Counted from the first letter of the stretch, positions 38,900 through 51,541 are shown. The stretch: DNA of 64,000 nucleotides from Aureispira anguillae (GCF_026000115.1 NZ_AP026867.1:2841716-2905715); one strand, 5' to 3'. The notes: a model not told the origin generated them from the sequence alone. Numbers and translations are program-made.

Positions 38900-39431
38900 T
38901 TACATTCTGTCTTTAGCACTTCTCTTTTAAGGCAACATAATATTAGAGGGTTCAAAAATTTGAGGAGAAATAATAGTTATTATAAGGACAAACTACTTTT
39001 AGTATTGGTTCATTGACAAATTGTGTGCTACTAATATAGGCTAAGGTGAAATTATTCGATTCGGGGATATTAATACCTAGACCACGTTGTTGTTAGATCC
39101 AATCCCCAAACGGCATAATTAAGACCGTTAATTAAAATTTCCACACGATTTGTCAAAGAACGTTATTTTTTAATTAAAACATTAAATACACTTTGTAAAA
39201 ACTGTTGGAGTGTATTATCTAGCTCCTATAAAAAAGGAGTTTAGGTATAATTTGAGGGAATATTTATTCACAGCAATTGTTTGATTTCTTATCACTTTAA
39301 TATTAAAAAAATACAGATAAAACCAACCTTTTCATGCGAACTAATGTCAATTTAACCAAAAAAAATATCATTTTAGCATTAAAGTATAAACTTTGTTTGA
39401 TTCATTAAAAAAAAAATCAAAATAACAACCT

Positions 39432-40199
39432 ATGATTAAGCTAGGAATTACGGGAGGATTATGTTCTCCTGACCCTAATCGAAATGTTTTTTCAACAAAA
39501 CAGTTGTGTTATATAGAATCTGATTTTGCCAATTATTGGGCTTCTTTTGGGGTGATGCCAATACTTATTCCCAACCTTTCAATAGAAACGTTGCCTTCTT
39601 TTTTAGCTCAACTCGACGGACTTGTCTTGATGGGAGGAACCGATATTGCGCCGTCTCAATACAATGAGGCTCCAATTGGGAAATGGCAAGGTGACGCACT
39701 ACGGGACAACTATGAGTTAACGATTCTTGATTGGTGTTTCAAACAGGATTATCCTATTCTTGGGATTTGTAGAGGTTTTCAACTTTTAAATGTTTATTTT
39801 GGAGGAACATTATATCAAGACCTTGAAACTCAACAACCAAGCAAGGTTAAACATAGAGATCCCTTAACTTATGATCTAAACCTCCATCCGATCAACTTAA
39901 TTCAAGGAGAACTCTTAGATCAACTAAAAATGAACCGTTTATCAACAACCGTAAATTCCATTCACCACCAAGGAATCAAAAAATTAGCTCCTAATCTGAC
40001 AGCTATTGCTGCTGCCGAAGATGGTTTAATAGAAGCATTTTATCACCATCAGAAACCCAAAGGCAAAATTATCGGTTTTCAATGGCATCCTGAGTTTTTT
40101 GTCCACGCTCAAGAAACACTGCTAAATGATCGCCCAGTTATAGAGCATTTTTTATCCTTCTGTTCTTCTAAATACCTAAACCCTAGTTTTGTCAAATAA
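39432..40199 (+). CDS. Class-I glutamine amidotransferase-like hydrolase (peptidase C26; gamma-glutamyl-GABA hydrolase family).
   Basis: Catalytic triad context ILGICRGFQLLNV (Cys) .. HHQGI (His). Confidence 0.7.
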   Translation: MIKLGITGGLCSPDPNRNVFSTKQLCYIESDFANYWASFGVMPILIPNLSIETLPSFLAQLDGLVLMGGTDIAPSQYNEAPIGKWQGDALRDNYELTILDWCFKQDYPILGICRGFQLLNVYFGGTLYQDLETQQPSKVKHRDPLTYDLNLHPINLIQGELLDQLKMNRLSTTVNSIHHQGIKKLAPNLTAIAAAEDGLIEAFYHHQKPKGKIIGFQWHPEFFVHAQETLLNDRPVIEHFLSFCSSKYLNPSFVK

Positions 40200-45019: not shown

Positions 45020-46195
45020 TCAACCCATCTTAATGGTGACTTTTCCATCCGCCAAATGCAATATATACTCCTCCCCAGCCTTTAGATCCTCAACCGAACC
45101 AATTAATTTACCTTCTGCATTACTAACAGCCGAAAAGCCCCTAGCTAAAATGGTTCTAGGGTCCAATAAATGCAATTTTTCCGCTATCGCCTCCAAATCT
45201 TGATTGGCTCTTTTTAAACGTTGTTGGGCAGAATGTTTCAAGTGTTCTTCTAGCAAATCTATCTTAGTGGATTCCTGGCGTATTCTCTCTAGTGCTATTC
45301 TTTTTATATCTGATGCATATTGTACAATAGTAGATTCGAATGTCAACATTTTATGAATCAAATAATCTGCTACAGCAGTAGGTGTTTTTAGTTTTTGATA
45401 CGCTACTAAATCGGCTAAAGTCTCATCAATGTCATGACCAATTCCCGTTAGAACAGGCAATTCACAAGTAGCTAGTGCCACACATAAGTCATAATCATCA
45501 AAGCCCATCAGATCTAATCTTGCACCGCCACCTCGAACAAGTACAATGCAATCAAAATCTGCTTTCCTTGCTTCAATTTTTTCAATTTGTTGCATCACTT
45601 CCAAAGGAACATTTACGCCTTGCACCACCGCTTCAAATAATTCATATTGAAATTTATACTGGTGAGGATTGGTATTGATTTGTTGCAAGAAATCTTGTAA
45701 ACCAGCAGCAGTACTTGAAGAAATCACAGCAATTCTCTGCCAGACTAAAGCCGTTGGCAATTGCGCATTTAATGCTGTAAAATGTTCCGCTTCTAGTTTT
45801 TTTTGCGTCTGTAAACGCTTCAATTCTAACTGTCCTATTGTAACAGTAGGATCAATGTCTTGAATTGATAATTTCATTCCAAAATATTCGTGAAACTCAA
45901 CTTGAACACGGAGCAATACTTGGCGTCCAACTTGAAGAATAGACCATAAAGAGTCTCCTATTTTTCGAATAATTTTGTCTAAAGAACGCCCCCAAATCAT
46001 AGCTTCTGCACGAGCCGTAATTTTAAAATCACTTCGCTCTACCAATGACAAATAAACATTTCCTTTGCTGTTTCCCACATCTGCAATTTCACAATTAATC
46101 CAAATGGTCTCCCGCATATTAAATGCTACCACACGTTTTAGATGTTCGTTCAATTCAAAAAGAGAAAAAGAGGTAATTTTATCTTGCCCAGCCAT
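45020..46195 (-). CDS. xseA: Exodeoxyribonuclease VII large subunit.
   Basis: N-terminal OB fold (LSLFELNEHLKRVV..IWINCEIADV) and a C-terminal catalytic region (VLVRGGGARLDLMGFDDYDLC). 391 aa. Confidence 0.85.
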   Translation of the reverse strand: MAGQDKITSFSLFELNEHLKRVVAFNMRETIWINCEIADVGNSKGNVYLSLVERSDFKITARAEAMIWGRSLDKIIRKIGDSLWSILQVGRQVLLRVQVEFHEYFGMKLSIQDIDPTVTIGQLELKRLQTQKKLEAEHFTALNAQLPTALVWQRIAVISSSTAAGLQDFLQQINTNPHQYKFQYELFEAVVQGVNVPLEVMQQIEKIEARKADFDCIVLVRGGGARLDLMGFDDYDLCVALATCELPVLTGIGHDIDETLADLVAYQKLKTPTAVADYLIHKMLTFESTIVQYASDIKRIALERIRQESTKIDLLEEHLKHSAQQRLKRANQDLEAIAEKLHLLDPRTILARGFSAVSNAEGKLIGSVEDLKAGEEYILHLADGKVTIKMG

Positions 46196-46259: not shown

Positions 46260-46934
46260 TTAACTTTCGTCAAATTCAAAGATGAACTTAGAATTATTGA
46301 TGGCTCTTTTGAATAGGTGTGGATAATGGCTCTGCATACCTGATTTGATGGTTTCAAATGGAAGATCAGCAAAGGTACCGTGATCTGTAATGTATTCCAT
46401 AAAAGGCTTGCCCTCCTTGTCCGACTTTTGGAAGATGGCATCTTTTTCCCCATCAAAATCTAGTGGTTCTACTCCTAATTTATGGCACAATTCGGTATTA
46501 AATACAGGAGTCGTTTTTATCCAGTTGCCCTCTAAATAGACCTCAGCATACCCATGATAAACTAATACATCTGTTTTTAATGTTTCTTCTAATATTTTTG
46601 TCCCCAAATGGTTTCGGACATTTCCATAGCCCAACCGACAAGGCACGCCCAAAGAACGCACACAAGCCGCAAACAAGTTAGATTTTTCAATACAATGCCC
46701 ATAATCCTTCGTCAACAAATAACTAGCTTTTAAAGCATAGGGTTTTAATATAATATGATAAGGAGAATACCTAAAACCATCTCTAATGGCATAATACAAG
46801 GCAATGACTTGTTCTTTTTTATCCTCAATTCCAATAACTTGCTGTTGGGCATACGCAACCACATCGGGATGATCGCTATTGGTATAAATTCCTGGTCTTA
46901 GATACTCTTCAAATAAATTTTCCATTCTTAACAA
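46260..46934 (-). CDS. Transglutaminase-like cysteine-protease superfamily protein.
   Basis: DYGHCIEKSNLFAACVRSLGVPCRLGYG (Cys), then a downstream His..Asp. 224 aa. Confidence 0.65.
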   Translation of the reverse strand: MLRMENLFEEYLRPGIYTNSDHPDVVAYAQQQVIGIEDKKEQVIALYYAIRDGFRYSPYHIILKPYALKASYLLTKDYGHCIEKSNLFAACVRSLGVPCRLGYGNVRNHLGTKILEETLKTDVLVYHGYAEVYLEGNWIKTTPVFNTELCHKLGVEPLDFDGEKDAIFQKSDKEGKPFMEYITDHGTFADLPFETIKSGMQSHYPHLFKRAINNSKFIFEFDES

Positions 46935-47120
46935 CTAAAATTTAAGTAGAGGACAAACTTAAAATATAAACATAAGCAATAACAAATCGCTTAATCTAGC
47001 ATATAAAATGCTTTTATTCCCCTATAAAAGCAAACGGTACTATAAACGTTTAAAAGTAAACATAAAAAAACCATCTTGAACTATTTCAAGATGGTTTTTT
47101 TAGAAATTATTGTTTGGCAA

Positions 47121-47432
47121 TTATTTAACAACGTTTGCCTCAATATCATAAATAATCATATCATCAGGAACATTTCCGTAGATATTTAAGCTAGAAGCAT
47201 AAGCAGGATCAACTTTTGCTTGAGAAGAATCAAATCTAAACTTGATAAATCCCTTTTGTCCTGGTTTGATGGCACCTCTAGACCAATCCAATGGTTCTGT
47301 ACAAATACATCCCCCTTCTAAATGGAAAATTTTAAAATCATTTTTGCCTGTATTGGTAAATTCAAGCGTATATTCTTCTATTTCTCCAAATTTTACTGGT
47401 CCAATTTTCATAATTGGTGCATCAAAGCCCAA
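47121..47432 (-). CDS. DUF1573 domain segment. It has no ATG start or signal peptide of its own and is probably expressed as a C-terminal extension of the upstream PorE-like protein by a -1 slip at an A10 tract.
   Basis: ..FKIFHLEGGCICTEP .. FIKFRFDSS is typical of DUF1573. The in-frame upstream sequence back to a TGA stop at 47514-47516 contains no ATG, and the track ORF starts at TTG. Inserting one A into the A10 tract puts it in frame with the 764-aa upstream gene. Confidence 0.5.
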   Translation of the reverse strand: MGFDAPIMKIGPVKFGEIEEYTLEFTNTGKNDFKIFHLEGGCICTEPLDWSRGAIKPGQKGFIKFRFDSSQAKVDPAYASSLNIYGNVPDDMIIYDIEANVVK

Positions 47433-47500
47433 AGTTGTTCTAGGTTTATCACCAGGTTTATTTGAGCTAGAACTAGTTGATGCTGCAACCGTGTTAACCT

Positions 47501-49795
47501 CTAGTTTTTTTTTTCAGGCTCTGTTGTTGTTGCTCCCAACGTACCATTGACAATTTTGAATTCTACACGACGGTTAAGTGCACGTCCTTCTGGATTATCT
47601 GAACCATCTGTTTTTTCGTTTTCTGCTGCTGGTTCTGCTTCACCCAAAGCTTTAGGCTGAAGACGATCTTTAGCAACACCTTTACCTACCAAGTAAGCAA
47701 TGGCAGCAGTAGAACGTTTGTTAGAAAGATTCATATTGTATTGATCAGAACCTTTAGCATCGGTATGACCTCTTACCTCTACTACCATTTCAGGATTTTC
47801 ATTCAATGTTTTTAACACCATATCTAAGGTATCAGCTGCTCCTTGTCTAATATCTGATTTATTAAACGAGAAATAAACATTGTAGAATACTGGAGGAGGA
47901 GTCAAGTACATTTTTTGCAACATTCCCAAATCCTTCTTAGCGATAACTCTGCTATCAGCAATATAACCTTCACGGTTAGCAAAAACTTTATAATCTTTAT
48001 CACGTGGTATTACAAAAGAAAACTCATTGCTACTTCCACCACTCAATTGCTTAATCTCTTTTCCTGTAGCAGCATCATAAAGAATTACTGTTACGCCTTC
48101 TAATGCTTCATTGGTTCTTTTGTTAAATGTTTGAACCATCAAACCAAGTTCCTTGATTTTAACTTCCTTAGACAACTCCATAGGTTTTGTCAAGTCTAAA
48201 CCAGCTTCTGTTAAAGCTTCTTTAGTTGCATCAGCAGTTTCAGTACTTCCGCCATGACCATCTTTTTTAGCAACAATGTCATACTTTTTACCCATATCTA
48301 GCATAAAAGTATAATCATTACCTTCTGTATTGGTTTGCTCGTCAACTACTTTTCCTGTTGCTTTATCAATCAATTGAACAGTAGCGCCAATCATAGGCTC
48401 TCCAGTTACCTCATCCATTACGTTAACATTCATCGCAATGTCACAACGCTCAGGCATAATAATAGAGAAGATGTCATCACAACAAGTTTCGCTTTTCAAC
48501 GAAATCGTACCAGGACGGTTAGACAATACATAAGCGTAACAATCATCGTTACCTACTTTGTTAACAATAAAGCTAAAGTCATCTACATAAGTATTGAACC
48601 CAGCACCCATGTTAACGATTTCGCCCATTGTTCCATTGTCAGAACGGTTAGAACGGAAAATATCCCATCCACCATATCCAGGATGTCCATCAGAACTAAA
48701 GTATAAGTTTCCATTTCTTTCATCAAAAAATGGTGTTACATCATCTCCTATTGTATTAACAGCTTCTAGGTTTAACGGCTCTTTAGTAGTACCATCTGCA
48801 TTGATTTCAGCATACCAAATATCCATTCCACCTTTACCGCCTTCCATATTAGAAGTAAACAATAAGTAGTTTTTGTTGTCCCAAGTAGCAAAAGCAGGAT
48901 CTTGACAAGAATAAGAACTAGAGTTAAAATCCAATAATTTAGGATTGCTAACTTGGCTACCATCGTAATCAGCTACATAAATGCGGCTATTTTCCAACTG
49001 GTTACCAATCAATTCTGCACGTACAAAGTAAAATTTAGTTTGATCTTCGTTAAAAGTAGGCTCAACAACGTGCATTCCTTCTTTTTGAAGGGCATCTGCA
49101 TTAAATTCTGTTGCTGCTTCCCACTCTCCTTTATCATTTGCTTTAGCAGTGTAGATTTTAGCATGCTCATAATCTTCTCCTTCCTCTTTAACAATAATAG
49201 TATCTACTCTCAAAGAAGCATAAATAATTTCATTACGACCAATTGGGAAAGCACCTCCCTCAGTAGATGGAGAGTTTACGTTAGGACCAACATTCTCTAT
49301 AATTAATTCTTCTGTTGGTTCAGCGTTATTTTTAGCCCATTTAGCACCATCAATATGGATTTGAGCCATTTTTTTGTAATAATCTGCCTTTGGCGCATCA
49401 TTAGGATATTCTTTGATAAAAGCCTCAAATTCAGGAATACAATTATCATAGTCACCTGTCATCTTCATGGTTCTAGCATGTTGATAACGGCTTAAAGGAT
49501 AATTGGCTTTTTCGTTTAGATCAACTAATTTTTGATACCACTCAGCAGCACTTTTATAATCTCTTAACATTTCATGTGTAGAGGCGATTTTATAAATAGC
49601 TGCACCATCTTTGTTGTTATGAGAATAGGCATTCATGTACCATTCTAAAGCGGTGTAGGTATTTTTTTTATTGAACTCTTCATCACCTATTTTTTCCTTG
49701 GTATCCTTAGATAGGTTATTACTTACGGGTTGTGCATAAGCCGAATGCCCAATAAATAAGAATGTAATAAGGATTAATATATTATTCAGTTTCAT
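47501..49795 (-). CDS. porE: PorE-like T9SS-associated outer-membrane protein: TPR, TolB-like beta-propeller, two carboxypeptidase-regulatory-like domains and an OmpA_C peptidoglycan-binding domain.
   Basis: Signal peptide. TPR repeats in the N-terminal third, TolB/WD40-like blades (..LLFTSNMEGGKGGMDIWYAE.., ..LYFSSDGHPGYGGWDIFRS..), and two CarbopepD_reg-like modules. The C-terminus is the OmpA/MotB motif FNKSDIRQGAADTLDMV..VEVRGHTDAKGSDQYNMNLSNKRSTA. This four-domain order matches P. gingivalis PorE (PG1058). It lies next to a porP/sprF-like gene. Confidence 0.7.
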   Translation of the reverse strand: MKLNNILILITFLFIGHSAYAQPVSNNLSKDTKEKIGDEEFNKKNTYTALEWYMNAYSHNNKDGAAIYKIASTHEMLRDYKSAAEWYQKLVDLNEKANYPLSRYQHARTMKMTGDYDNCIPEFEAFIKEYPNDAPKADYYKKMAQIHIDGAKWAKNNAEPTEELIIENVGPNVNSPSTEGGAFPIGRNEIIYASLRVDTIIVKEEGEDYEHAKIYTAKANDKGEWEAATEFNADALQKEGMHVVEPTFNEDQTKFYFVRAELIGNQLENSRIYVADYDGSQVSNPKLLDFNSSSYSCQDPAFATWDNKNYLLFTSNMEGGKGGMDIWYAEINADGTTKEPLNLEAVNTIGDDVTPFFDERNGNLYFSSDGHPGYGGWDIFRSNRSDNGTMGEIVNMGAGFNTYVDDFSFIVNKVGNDDCYAYVLSNRPGTISLKSETCCDDIFSIIMPERCDIAMNVNVMDEVTGEPMIGATVQLIDKATGKVVDEQTNTEGNDYTFMLDMGKKYDIVAKKDGHGGSTETADATKEALTEAGLDLTKPMELSKEVKIKELGLMVQTFNKRTNEALEGVTVILYDAATGKEIKQLSGGSSNEFSFVIPRDKDYKVFANREGYIADSRVIAKKDLGMLQKMYLTPPPVFYNVYFSFNKSDIRQGAADTLDMVLKTLNENPEMVVEVRGHTDAKGSDQYNMNLSNKRSTAAIAYLVGKGVAKDRLQPKALGEAEPAAENEKTDGSDNPEGRALNRRVEFKIVNGTLGATTTEPEKKN

Positions 49796-49925
49796 TATCC
49801 GAAATAAGTTTAGATTAAGTTGTGGATTACTATACTATATTTAGAAGCTGCTTCTTTAGCTTCTTATAATAAAACAAGATTAGAAATTCACAGTAGCAAA
49901 TTTCTAATCTCAAATTGGAGTTATA

Positions 49926-51053
49926 TTAAAAACGAGGACAAATCAAGACATCGTCAATAACAGGAACTTTATAAATTTTAGCAACATACGAAAGTGCTAC
50001 TTCAAAGGCCATTCCTCTGTTGTTATTGTTGAATAATTTATAATTTAATCCTTGAGCGTGTGTATTTATATCATAAGCAAATCCAAATTTTAATCCTTTA
50101 ATGTCTAGTCCTATACGAGCAATAGCGTCACCACTTACACGATAACCACCACCCAAGTACAAGGTAATATCTTGCATGTCATTGAAATGAATTCCCAACA
50201 ACAATTGACCATTCAAGTCAAATGCACTTAAACCTTCTCCTTGTCCAGTTGTATTTAATGTATTTTGGAAGAAGAACAACGGTCTTAAGAACAAGTTACC
50301 TTTTTGAGTCAATGCAATTTTCATCGCCAAGTTGGCAATAATTGTCATTGGCAATTTAGCCTCATCAGCCTCGTTTTGGTCTGGAGTTTTAAAGCTATAG
50401 TTCGGGTTGGTGAAATGGTTTAAGGAAGCAGCTGCTTCCAATCCAAATCTTCTACCTCTATGGCTTACCATCAAACCTCCTGAGAAATCAGGCAACGTTT
50501 TAGATACATTTCCACCAACATACAACGGATCTGTTGTTGGTGCATTATTATTAAGCAACTGATCTTCGAAGGTGTAATCACCAGAGATTCTGCGCTGTAA
50601 AATACCACCTTGCACGCCTAAAGAGACAATTGTATTGCCTTTTTGCCCAAGTCCTAAATGATAAGCCAAGGACAAGCTAGCTGCTAAGTTTGATACATTA
50701 CCAACTGCATCATAATAAAATGAGACCCCAACGCCAGCCCAACTTTTCATATTTTTGCTCTTGTCTTTGGGAGGAATACCAAAAGGGACATCAATATAAG
50801 CAGATGGTGTTTGAAAACCAGAAAAGCTTTGAGAACTATTATTAAGAGAAGGAGGAGTAGAAACTGACAAACCAGCCCACTGTGTCCTGTAGATACCTCC
50901 AACTCTAAAAGTACCTGCATAATACCCTGTATAAACAGGATTTAACTCAAGTGGAGCCATGTCAAACATTGTATAATGTATGTCTTGGGCCTGACTACTG
51001 GATGTACAAAAACCTACTATAAAAAGCAGGCATACACTCTTTAAAATTTTCAT
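49926..51053 (-). CDS. PorP/SprF-family T9SS outer-membrane protein.
   Basis: Signal peptide, then DIHYTMFDMAPLELNPVYTG, the family signature (Q)D.H(F/Y)(S/T)..(L)NPA.TG. 375-aa predicted beta-barrel. Confidence 0.7.
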   Translation of the reverse strand: MKILKSVCLLFIVGFCTSSSQAQDIHYTMFDMAPLELNPVYTGYYAGTFRVGGIYRTQWAGLSVSTPPSLNNSSQSFSGFQTPSAYIDVPFGIPPKDKSKNMKSWAGVGVSFYYDAVGNVSNLAASLSLAYHLGLGQKGNTIVSLGVQGGILQRRISGDYTFEDQLLNNNAPTTDPLYVGGNVSKTLPDFSGGLMVSHRGRRFGLEAAASLNHFTNPNYSFKTPDQNEADEAKLPMTIIANLAMKIALTQKGNLFLRPLFFFQNTLNTTGQGEGLSAFDLNGQLLLGIHFNDMQDITLYLGGGYRVSGDAIARIGLDIKGLKFGFAYDINTHAQGLNYKLFNNNNRGMAFEVALSYVAKIYKVPVIDDVLICPRF

Positions 51054-51541
51054 CGTCTAAGAGGAGTTTTTAAGTACGAATACCGTAATTTAATTCAATA
51101 ATAAGATTTATACCGCTATAAATAACTTTGGGTAAATATACAGTTTTTATTTACAGAAAGTAAGCAAACGTCTGTTTTAGTTGTTAACTTTTAACAAAAA
51201 ATCATTAAATAGCTACTTTATTGGCTTTTCAAAACTACATTTCGTCAAATCCCCAAAGAGTTATTGTTGATTTCCTCTGTTAAAACAACCTTAACATTTT
51301 ATTAAACGCTAATGTATGCTTTTTCAAAATATTTTCCCCATTTCATCGCAATTAATTCTCTTTAAACCAATATATAGCTCTATCTTATTGAAATAAGGAG
51401 CAAAGTTGCTTTTTTTTACTCCTCCTACAAAATGTTTTCTAAATGTTAAAGTTTGTCCTTTGCCCTTTAAAATAAAAAAATATCTTTGCTTAAAAAATTA
51501 AACAATTTGAAGATCTACCGACCTTAACACATACACATAAA

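Follow-up and report, generated by a model that had tools for sequence, protein, structure and literature searches.

A 64,000-nucleotide stretch of the Aureispira anguillae genome (NZ_AP026867.1:2841716-2905715, hereafter the window) carries on its minus strand a PorE-like gene, the open reading frame (ORF) of which closes directly behind a run of ten adenines (A10), and a DUF1573 domain that lies open in the -1 frame beyond it. This raises the question of whether two genes, one damaged gene or one gene with two products is present. The initial annotation had taken the arrangement for a genuine, conditional fusion and had offered programmed -1 ribosomal frameshifting, transcriptional slippage and phase-variable tract length as mechanisms. 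The explanation that we favour, with moderate confidence and from comparative sequence analysis, is programmed recoding at the RNA level, chiefly by slippage of RNA polymerase, by which one gene would give rise to two nested isoforms.

On the minus strand the 764-aa ORF ends ..ACA GAG CCT GAA AAA AAA AAC TAG AGG TTA AC.., and one inserted A (or a -1 shift) opens an 891-aa ORF that ends at the TAA at 47123..47121. This confirms the frame relation proposed initially. The 891-aa frame reads ..EPEKKK-LEVNTVAASTSSSSNKPGDKPRTT-LGFDAPIMK..; the bridging peptide given in the initial annotation was right except for one dropped serine, the true sequence being ..AASTSSSSNKPG.. Since a TGA at 47516..47514 ends the -1 frame, the shift must occur inside the tract. 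The translation of 47513..47121 (KKKLEVNTVAASTSSSSNKPGDKPRTTLGFDAPIMK...) matches the Pfam model DUF1573 over profile positions 3-98 of 98 with 53.5 bits (cutoff 26.1), and LEVNTVAASTSSSSNKPGDKPR is an example of a peptide belonging to the long isoform. No ATG is found from the TGA to the TTG at 47432, the first one being codon 8 of the 103-aa ORF, and no signal peptide is present there, both as claimed before. Taken alone the tract is not statistically unusual, as two A10/T10 runs were observed in the window versus 7.1 +/- 3.8 in dinucleotide shuffles. The A10 is the only run longer than eight within a long ORF of the window; 19 of the 28 runs of at least eight are intergenic, though only 21% of the window is intergenic, the other 79% belonging to ORFs of at least 150 aa. 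What makes the A10 significant is the frame geometry and, most of all, its conservation across lineages. The one other A10 of the window (39407-39416) is intergenic, 16 nt upstream of the ATG of an ORF at 39432..40199, and may lie in a promoter or leader region.

Relatives were found by a protein search with the hypothetical fusion protein as query. In addition, a profile search of genome contigs with full-length alignment gave L001 as the sole useful locus among the matches listed, and a scan of metagenomes with a DUF1573 alignment gave five close loci as well as 33 unrelated stand-alone DUF1573 genes, which were kept as control (L and P handles are ours). For P0053, P0055, P0180-P0182 and Saprospira grandis, tract length was deduced solely from protein tails. 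The relatives comprise fused forms of 883-935 aa (OmpA plus DUF1573) and short forms of about 760-818 aa. Short forms with a lysine run at or near the C-terminus make up 50 of the 65 closest full-length clusters, the run lying within the last few residues in 48; their tails mostly read ..EKKN-stop or ..EKKK-stop, and the residues just ahead vary freely. At the protein level, four Saprospira isolate genomes, three of them S. grandis, encode a 761-aa form ending ..EKKN-stop, which would make the recoding site common to at least two genera. A few short forms that run 4-6 codons beyond the lysine run (P0053, P0055, P0190 and P0196; EKKNNGTRN-stop, EKKKSVKPLN-stop) were also observed, some of them on 8-15 kb contigs; these may have a displaced stop or another tract length, possibly one that needs a +1 shift.

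For 12 distinct split lineages, which span 88% to about 50% protein identity, DNA was available. All of them carry a tract of at least ten A (A10 in 11, A11 in one) that is followed by a nearby stop, with DUF1573 readable in the -1 frame from the tract onwards, and none needs a +1 shift. The form GAA AAA AAA AA(C/G) is present in 10 of the 12 (the window, L081-84, L093, L094, L086, L087, L088/89, L090-92, L096 and L097), with the stop in the next codon in nine of these and one codon later in L090. The remaining two carry the run in another codon phase, as A10 in L139 (TCA AAA AAA AAA CAG TAG) and as A11 in the same phase in L132/133 (GTA AAA AAA AAA ATA TAG). A -1-frame stop lies at the tract or at most two codons off in 10 of the 12 lineages. 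The linker frame is open in all 12 over about 11-29 codons ahead of the domain, and its sequence is variable apart from a ..PGDKPRTT.. segment in Aureispira. When 15 tract-bearing junctions with DNA (these 12 and three fused ones described below) were aligned on the tract, the TA at +2/+3 was conserved in 80% and 90%; conservation was limited to G-A10/11-(C/G)-TA-(A/G), and the 30 nt on each flank were at background. Given the amino acids and the codon usage (AAA 85%, GAA 72%), an unbroken GAA AAA AAA in 12 lineages has a chance of ~4e-4.

Homopolymer indels are common in long-read assemblies and one relative of 85% identity is fused with A11, which could speak for a sequencing or assembly error in a gene that is really fused. 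The same out-of-frame state, however, recurs in 11 further lineages that were sequenced and assembled independently (NCBI isolates, ENA, JGI, Logan), and the identical A10 is found in four independent assemblies of one Aureispira lineage, an NCBI isolate genome included. An error in the A. anguillae genome is thereby effectively refuted.

The DUF1573 domain is under strong purifying selection in the split lineages. The median ratio of non-synonymous to synonymous substitution rates (dN/dS) is 0.14 among them and 0.04-0.12 within Aureispira, at dS values of 0.8-2.6, near saturation, and selection is tighter than on the adjoining OmpA region. These data bear on the idea that an ancient frameshift split the gene, so that the DUF1573 protein either is made alone, from an internal start or by termination-reinitiation, or is a remnant in decay, with the tract being incidental. 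Gene callers indeed annotate a separate DUF1573 ORF of 91-121 aa in every split locus, and in several lineages an ATG, the only one, sits nine codons into the domain. However, a conserved start codon was not found; in L096 and L097 no ATG, GTG or TTG is present ahead of the FTNTG motif. A product of an internal start would have neither the first strand nor a signal peptide; no signal peptide was detected on any split-locus DUF1573 ORF, whereas the unrelated stand-alone DUF1573 genes of the metagenome scan all carry one. In the window, neither a terminator-like nor a sigma-70-like site was detected on the minus strand between the stop of the 764-aa ORF and DUF1573, and no copy of the Bacteroidota -7 promoter motif TAnnTTTG occurs between the two ORFs. 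In every lineage the linker frame extends without a stop back to the tract, purifying selection excludes decay, and an incidental A10 would not survive dS of at least 1 in 12 lineages. Separate production or decay of the domain is thus considered very unlikely.

OmpA followed by DUF1573 in a single ORF was found in relatives of 31-37% identity, e.g. Portibacter marinus, and in several nested clades. As distant relatives carry TPR, OmpA and a C-terminal DUF1573 in one ORF, the fusion protein is the normal architecture of the family. In a neighbour-joining tree of the shared part, short forms occupy the deepest branches and the Aureispira crown, and the fused clades are nested among them. Two kinds of fused genes can be distinguished. 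In L134 (GAA AAG AAA AAA GCA) and L001 the tract is eroded and the gene is plainly in frame. In L085 (GAA AAA AAA AAA TTA GAG), L135-137 (..AAA AAA AAA GTA AGT) and L138 (..AAA AAA AAA GTA GAT) an A11 puts DUF1573 in frame, and in all three an A10 transcript would next read a stop (AAT TAG, AAG TAA and AAG TAG, respectively). L135 and L138 represent diverged sister lineages, both with A11 and the poised stop. Of the tract-bearing lineages, 12 therefore need a -1 shift, three are in frame and none needs +1. The change from A10 to A11 is an easy mutation, yet A10 persists over long times, which argues that A10 is favoured and not merely tolerated. Both contiguous OmpA-DUF1573 ORFs and the same slippery site are thus present in relatives, where the initial annotation had proposed to look for them. 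Its view of a genuine, conditional fusion instead of two genes is supported by the tract of at least ten A with its stop in 12 lineages, by the fused orthologs, by selection and by the lack of an own start or signal peptide.

Length variants of the tract were found on contigs of about the size of the operon. In the species cluster of L096 (90% identity) the protein tails EEKKK-stop, EEKKKVETT.. (890 aa), EEKKSRNNQ-stop and EEKKKSRNNQ-stop correspond to A10, A11, A9 and A12 on L096 DNA. The A10 form is represented by seven sequences on up to 29 contigs (per-sequence counts summed), every contig above 30 kb included; A9, A11 and A12 are singletons, each on a contig of 3.9-4.3 kb. In another species, L131 (A13) and L094 (A10) are 99.4% identical. 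Many contigs that carry this gene measure 3.85-4.2 kb, and the unit from PorP/SprF to the terminator spans 3.99 kb in the window; 51118..47063 is the window's counterpart of these contigs. Among the operon-sized contigs, which comprise L094, L131 and cluster members of P0032, P0013 and P0066, two independent ones, of L131 and L094, have 5' ends that differ by no more than 2 nt and lie 65 nt ahead of the PorP/SprF ATG, with the contig of L094 terminating 14 nt past the DUF1573 stop; the contigs of L135-137 share an end ~320 nt upstream. These contigs look like (meta)transcriptome assemblies of one abundant transcript, and we infer a transcript origin for them. If so, they represent a tricistronic-looking unit with tract-length heterogeneity at the RNA level. 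A search for TAnnTTTG upstream of the shared 5' end gave one match, 184 nt upstream of the PorP/SprF ATG of the window, and none in most lineages.

Two further observations concern these contigs. P0141, on a 4185-nt contig, ends ..ENEKNGWF-stop, as a +1 A slip in an upstream A6 run (window 47595-47600, minus-strand GAAAAAAC within ..GAA AAC GAA AAA ACA GAT..) would give, and so adds a second homopolymer-length variant to those on contigs of operon size. The 65-nt PorP/SprF leader (window 51054-51118, minus strand; L081 1201-1265) is 98.5% identical between L131 and L081, and the region is 95% identical to the window over ~140 nt, though synonymous sites elsewhere are near saturation; the leader may be a regulatory 5' untranslated region.

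The variants could also point to classic phase variation, in which slipped-strand mispairing would toggle the DNA between A10 (OFF, short) and A11 (ON, fused) and the RNA-level part would be negligible. A homopolymer this long is prone to mutation, some lineages have an in-frame A11 (L085, L135-138), one species-level cluster shows A9, A10, A11 and A12 and another A10 and A13, and the product is a cell-envelope protein, the typical class of contingency loci (PMC3711429). However, the states are far from a switching equilibrium (12:3:0, and 50 short versus three tract-bearing fused clusters). The isolates are all OFF, namely A. anguillae, at least one Aureispira sp. (GCA_000724545.1) together with a 7.3-Mb contig and a WP_ 'MULTISPECIES' record of the same protein, and the four Saprospira. 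The polymorphic cluster has A10 on every contig above 30 kb, its variants being singletons on ~4 kb contigs, and if OFF meant no expression, DUF1573 could not hold a dN/dS of ~0.1 where it is OFF everywhere sampled. We therefore regard switching at the DNA level as improbable, and among the three mechanisms offered initially it is the least supported. The initial annotation had counted an invariant A10 against its proposal; near-invariance was indeed found, but it constitutes the strongest evidence for RNA-level recoding and against classic phase variation.

For the proposed RNA-level recoding the following course is envisaged. Faithful transcription and translation would give the 764-aa short isoform, a predicted peptidoglycan tether with TPR, CRD and OmpA_C. 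On the A10/T10 tract, which would fill the entire 9-10 bp RNA-DNA hybrid, RNA polymerase would slip and a fraction of the transcripts would gain one A. Normal translation of the +1 A mRNA would then read EKKK-LEVN.. through the Ser/Thr/Pro-rich linker into the Ig-like DUF1573 domain, and the resulting 891-aa long isoform would be exported by the N-terminal signal peptide of the same polypeptide. Slippage of the ribosome by -1 on A_AAA_AAA or A_AAA_AAC may add to the 891-aa product. Judging from analogous cases, the long isoform would presumably be in the minority.

That RNA polymerase rather than the ribosome would be the main slipping machine is suggested by several features. A heptamer of 7 nt is enough for ribosomal slippage. 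The tract comprises at least ten A in all 15 tract-bearing lineages with DNA, in three codon phases, and is never shorter, and the glutamate codon ahead of the lysine run is GAA in all 10 such cases, which lengthens the run. In vivo, runs of nine A or T are enough for efficient slippage of bacterial RNA polymerase, the hybrid of which measures 9-10 bp (PMC5009743); two-ORF dnaX genes with A10 have been assigned to transcriptional realignment (PMC3711429). A conserved RNA stimulator was not detected when each lineage was folded against shuffles (mean folding z -0.75 downstream, 0.03 upstream). The junctions of L096 and L097 are unstructured, with minimum free energies of 0 to -1.3 kcal/mol, and the RNAalifold consensus of the Aureispira-type junctions gave -1.75 kcal/mol, no compensatory pairs and only a stem ~70 nt away; the segment used for L085 did not include the tract, without effect on this outcome. 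Neither a conserved upstream motif nor a Shine-Dalgarno (SD)-like element was found at the tract in the lineages with DNA. Polymerase slippage is thus favoured by the run of always at least ten, the kept GAA, the filled hybrid, the dnaX precedent, the missing stimulator and the A11 with poised stop, which makes sense only if transcripts vary in tract length.

With programmed -1 ribosomal frameshifting as the main route, the mRNA would be faithful, and ribosomes would slip on A_AAA_AAA or A_AAA_AA(C/G) just ahead of the zero-frame stop and carry on in the DUF1573 frame. A slippery heptamer is in phase in all 12 split lineages, both alternative codon phases included, and A_AAA_AAG, A_AAA_AAC and A_AAA_AAA are among the recurrent conserved prokaryotic frameshift heptamers (PMC3711429). 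The zero-frame ORF closes directly 3' of the site, and stops in either frame delimit the overlap. On the other hand, no conserved hairpin or pseudoknot was found at 5-9 nt and no SD-like element upstream, several lineages being unstructured. A heptamer would be enough, yet no DNA-verified lineage has fewer than ten A, and GAA is kept in 10 of 10. In addition, A11 with a poised stop fits transcript-length heterogeneity, and -1 frameshifting there would leave the DUF1573 frame. We hold the ribosome as main route to be unlikely, and in this respect the initial list of mechanisms narrows to polymerase slippage in preference to stimulated ribosomal frameshifting.

Several points weigh against polymerase slippage as the principal route and against a general need for two isoforms. 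Unstimulated -1 ribosomal frameshifting yields the same product, and every tract contains an in-phase X_XXY_YYZ (A_AAA_AAA, A_AAA_AAC or A_AAA_AAG). The length variants on short contigs may be artefacts of reverse transcriptase, the polymerase chain reaction, Illumina sequencing or assembly. An entire Aureispira clade (P0014-P0026, L134, L001) has a broken tract and a plain fused gene, indicating that the need for two isoforms is not universal. Over evolution the length of the tract does shift at the DNA level, as in the A11 lineages, and the codon-usage argument (~4e-4) is by itself modest.

With these reservations, the polymerase-slippage reading can be extended, tentatively, to a dedicated two-isoform system in the envelope machinery of Saprospiraceae that is associated with the type IX secretion system (T9SS). 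Slippage would set the ratio of short to long isoform, lineages would tune it via A10 or A11, and the variant contigs would be snapshots of slipped transcripts. With A10 the short isoform would be the major one and the long one would arise by +1 A; with A11 the long isoform would be the major one and the short one would arise by -1 A, for which the stop would be kept.

The 764-aa product is 100% identical to 'OmpA family protein [Aureispira anguillae]' (P0002). It has a cleavable signal peptide (..HSAYA|QP) and no cysteine at its N-terminus (MKLNNILILITFLFIGHSAYAQP), hence no lipobox Cys. Of the PorE-type architecture (TPR / beta-propeller / CRD / OmpA_C), TPR, CarboxypepD_reg and OmpA were detected by Pfam; PD40 repeats were detected in relatives only, not in the window protein. 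The OmpA_C domain matches PDB entry 6TOP (E=1.5e-15), which is titled only 'OmpA family protein' and which we take to be the PorE C-terminal domain. Against NCBIfam the protein scored 231.5 bits with T9SS_PorE (NF052230; curated cutoff 600) and 289.4 bits with CHU_0125_OmpA (NF053607; cutoff 620), its best-scoring family, both below cutoff. The upstream gene reached 133.8 bits with TIGR03519 (PorP/SprF; cutoff 90.55) and is a member of that family, and a PorP/SprF gene lies directly upstream of the PorE-like gene in all related loci inspected. To call the protein the core T9SS component PorE, as was done initially, is thus overstated in view of the scores and the missing lipobox Cys, although it always adjoins PorP/SprF. 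A PorE/CHU_0125-like peptidoglycan tether is the predicted role, and 'PorE-like' is the defensible name. P. gingivalis PorE is presumably an outer-membrane lipoprotein with a lipobox Cys, and the A. anguillae protein has no such Cys. In P. gingivalis, PorE (PG1058/PGN_1296) binds both peptidoglycan and PorP (PMC11611037); in Cytophaga hutchinsonii, CHU_0125 maintains outer-membrane integrity (PMC5891637). Both share the TPR, CRD and OmpA_C peptidoglycan-binding architecture with the protein described here, the gene of which always follows PorP/SprF. Neither has been described with a C-terminal DUF1573, which the A. anguillae family carries in frame or via recoding.

The AlphaFold model of DUF1573, for which database fragments were modelled, is a 7-strand beta-sandwich (pLDDT 95.8). 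Foldseek matched it to the PapD-like domains of HYDIN and to P. gingivalis 2QSV; a sequence search of the domain against PDB gave nothing meaningful. An invariant C-x-C motif (GGCICT) is shared by 19 diverse members in the alignment, and the domain has a weak NCBIfam match to the OS_HP2 (seleno)protein family. Some DUF1573 proteins contain selenocysteine in an equivalent U-G-C motif (PMC9312934). The likeness of C-x-C and U-G-C hints that the appended domain may be redox-active or metal-binding. In outline, the extra domain of the long isoform would be a periplasmic protein-interaction module, possibly a redox C-x-C one, that acts with the PorP/SprF partner.

Among known systems, dnaX (tau/gamma) of Thermus thermophilus (A9) and the two-ORF dnaX genes of other bacteria (A10) come closest, as they also combine 9-10 A in a cellular gene with N-terminally identical products that differ at the C-terminus (PMC5009743, PMC3711429). 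There, too, stops follow right after the tract in alternative frames, and the long form is either in frame or needs a slip, comparable to the A11 fused and A10 split genes here; the A11 lineages with poised stop mirror the logic of T. thermophilus dnaX. Unlike the replicase subunit made there, the product here is a predicted exported envelope protein of another gene family. In the Shigella flexneri type III secretion system (T3SS) genes spa13 and mxiE, slippage on an A/T run in a secretion-associated gene provides part of the product (25-30% for Spa13) with a C-terminal extension that is functional (PMC5009743). These genes are plasmid-borne, belong to a T3SS and are found in Proteobacteria, whereas the present case concerns a peptidoglycan tether next to PorP/SprF that is conserved across genera of Bacteroidota. 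Ancient poly(A) frameshifts of insect endosymbionts are reportedly rescued by polymerase infidelity (Wernegreen 2010, as listed in PMC3711429). The Buchnera and Blochmannia frameshifts, as cited in PMC5009743, resemble the present gene in being out of frame with a tract length that is kept by selection because slippage restores the frame. They represent rescue of damage in degenerate, drift-dominated genomes, whereas the hosts here are free-living with genomes of 4-7.6 Mb. That A11 is one easy mutation off and yet rare, and that the poised stop is kept in A11 lineages, argues for use and not mere rescue. IS1 transposases are an example of -1 frameshifting. The -1 programmed ribosomal frameshift sites of E. 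coli dnaX and of IS3-family transposases have the same heptamers (A_AAA_AAG, A_AAA_AAC) and phase, the -1 relation and a close zero-frame stop (PMC3711429, PMC5009743). They differ in their stimulators (internal SD, stem-loop or pseudoknot) and in that 7 nt are enough; here no stimulator was found and the run has at least ten A.

Within the literature that could be searched, no report was found that ties T9SS components, PorE or DUF1573 to slippage or frameshifting, and while the class of mechanism is known, this instance appears to be undescribed. Only a small number of conserved slippage sites that are put to use are known from cellular genes of free-living bacteria, such as dnaX and some T3SS genes. 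If the two-isoform reading is true, the site would constitute the first described case of conserved recoding in a T9SS-linked component and one of the rare cases in a cellular gene of a free-living bacterium. This reading predicts a sub-stoichiometric long tether isoform with an Ig-like C-x-C domain, paired with PorP/SprF, which would be relevant to T9SS and gliding in predatory Aureispira. For annotation, pipelines call in Aureispira, Saprospira and relatives a 764-aa 'OmpA family protein' and an orphan DUF1573 ORF with an arbitrary start and without a signal peptide, where the evidence points to one gene with two products. The site spans at least two genera, and both A10 and A11 with poised stop occur in one family, which would make the locus a natural system for studying how slippage sites evolve. 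The features of the unit are given in Table 1.

Table 1. Positions in the window of the features of the PorP/SprF and PorE-like unit
Feature	Position	Strand	Basis or remark
PorP/SprF-family T9SS outer-membrane protein gene, 375 aa, first in unit	49926..51053	-	Pfam PF11751, 118.7 bits
Zero-frame ORF, short isoform, 764 aa	47501..49795	-	Signal peptide, TPR, CarboxypepD_reg, OmpA_C (Pfam)
TGA closing the -1 frame immediately 5' of the tract	47514..47516	-	
A10 slippery tract, GAA AAA AAA AAC, putative recoding site	47505..47514	-	Plus-strand T10; sequence read directly
Zero-frame stop TAG, one base past the tract, ends short isoform	47501..47503	-	
Linker, -1 frame only, LEVNTVAASTSSSSNKPGDKPRTT	47433..47504	-	
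DUF1573 (PapD-like/ASH Ig-fold) domain with stop TAA, C-terminal module of predicted long isoform	47121..47432	-	
Intrinsic-terminator-like hairpin, 18-bp stem and T run, after DUF1573, ends transcription unit	47063..47102	-	

The 130 nt that separate PorP/SprF from the PorE-like gene contain another terminator-like hairpin (17 pairs, three G-C only) followed by T's, at 49875-49912 on the minus strand, which may be an attenuator or processing site that tunes the relative dosage of both genes. Downstream of the unit, Aureispira-type loci share genes for a transglutaminase-like protein, the exonuclease VII large subunit (XseA) and a DUF5682 protein; the window genes at 46260-46934 and 45020-46195 (minus strand) belong to this kept synteny. 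Deeper lineages have other downstream neighbours (FAD-binding oxidase, LysE), and PorP/SprF, the PorE-like gene and DUF1573 are still together in them.

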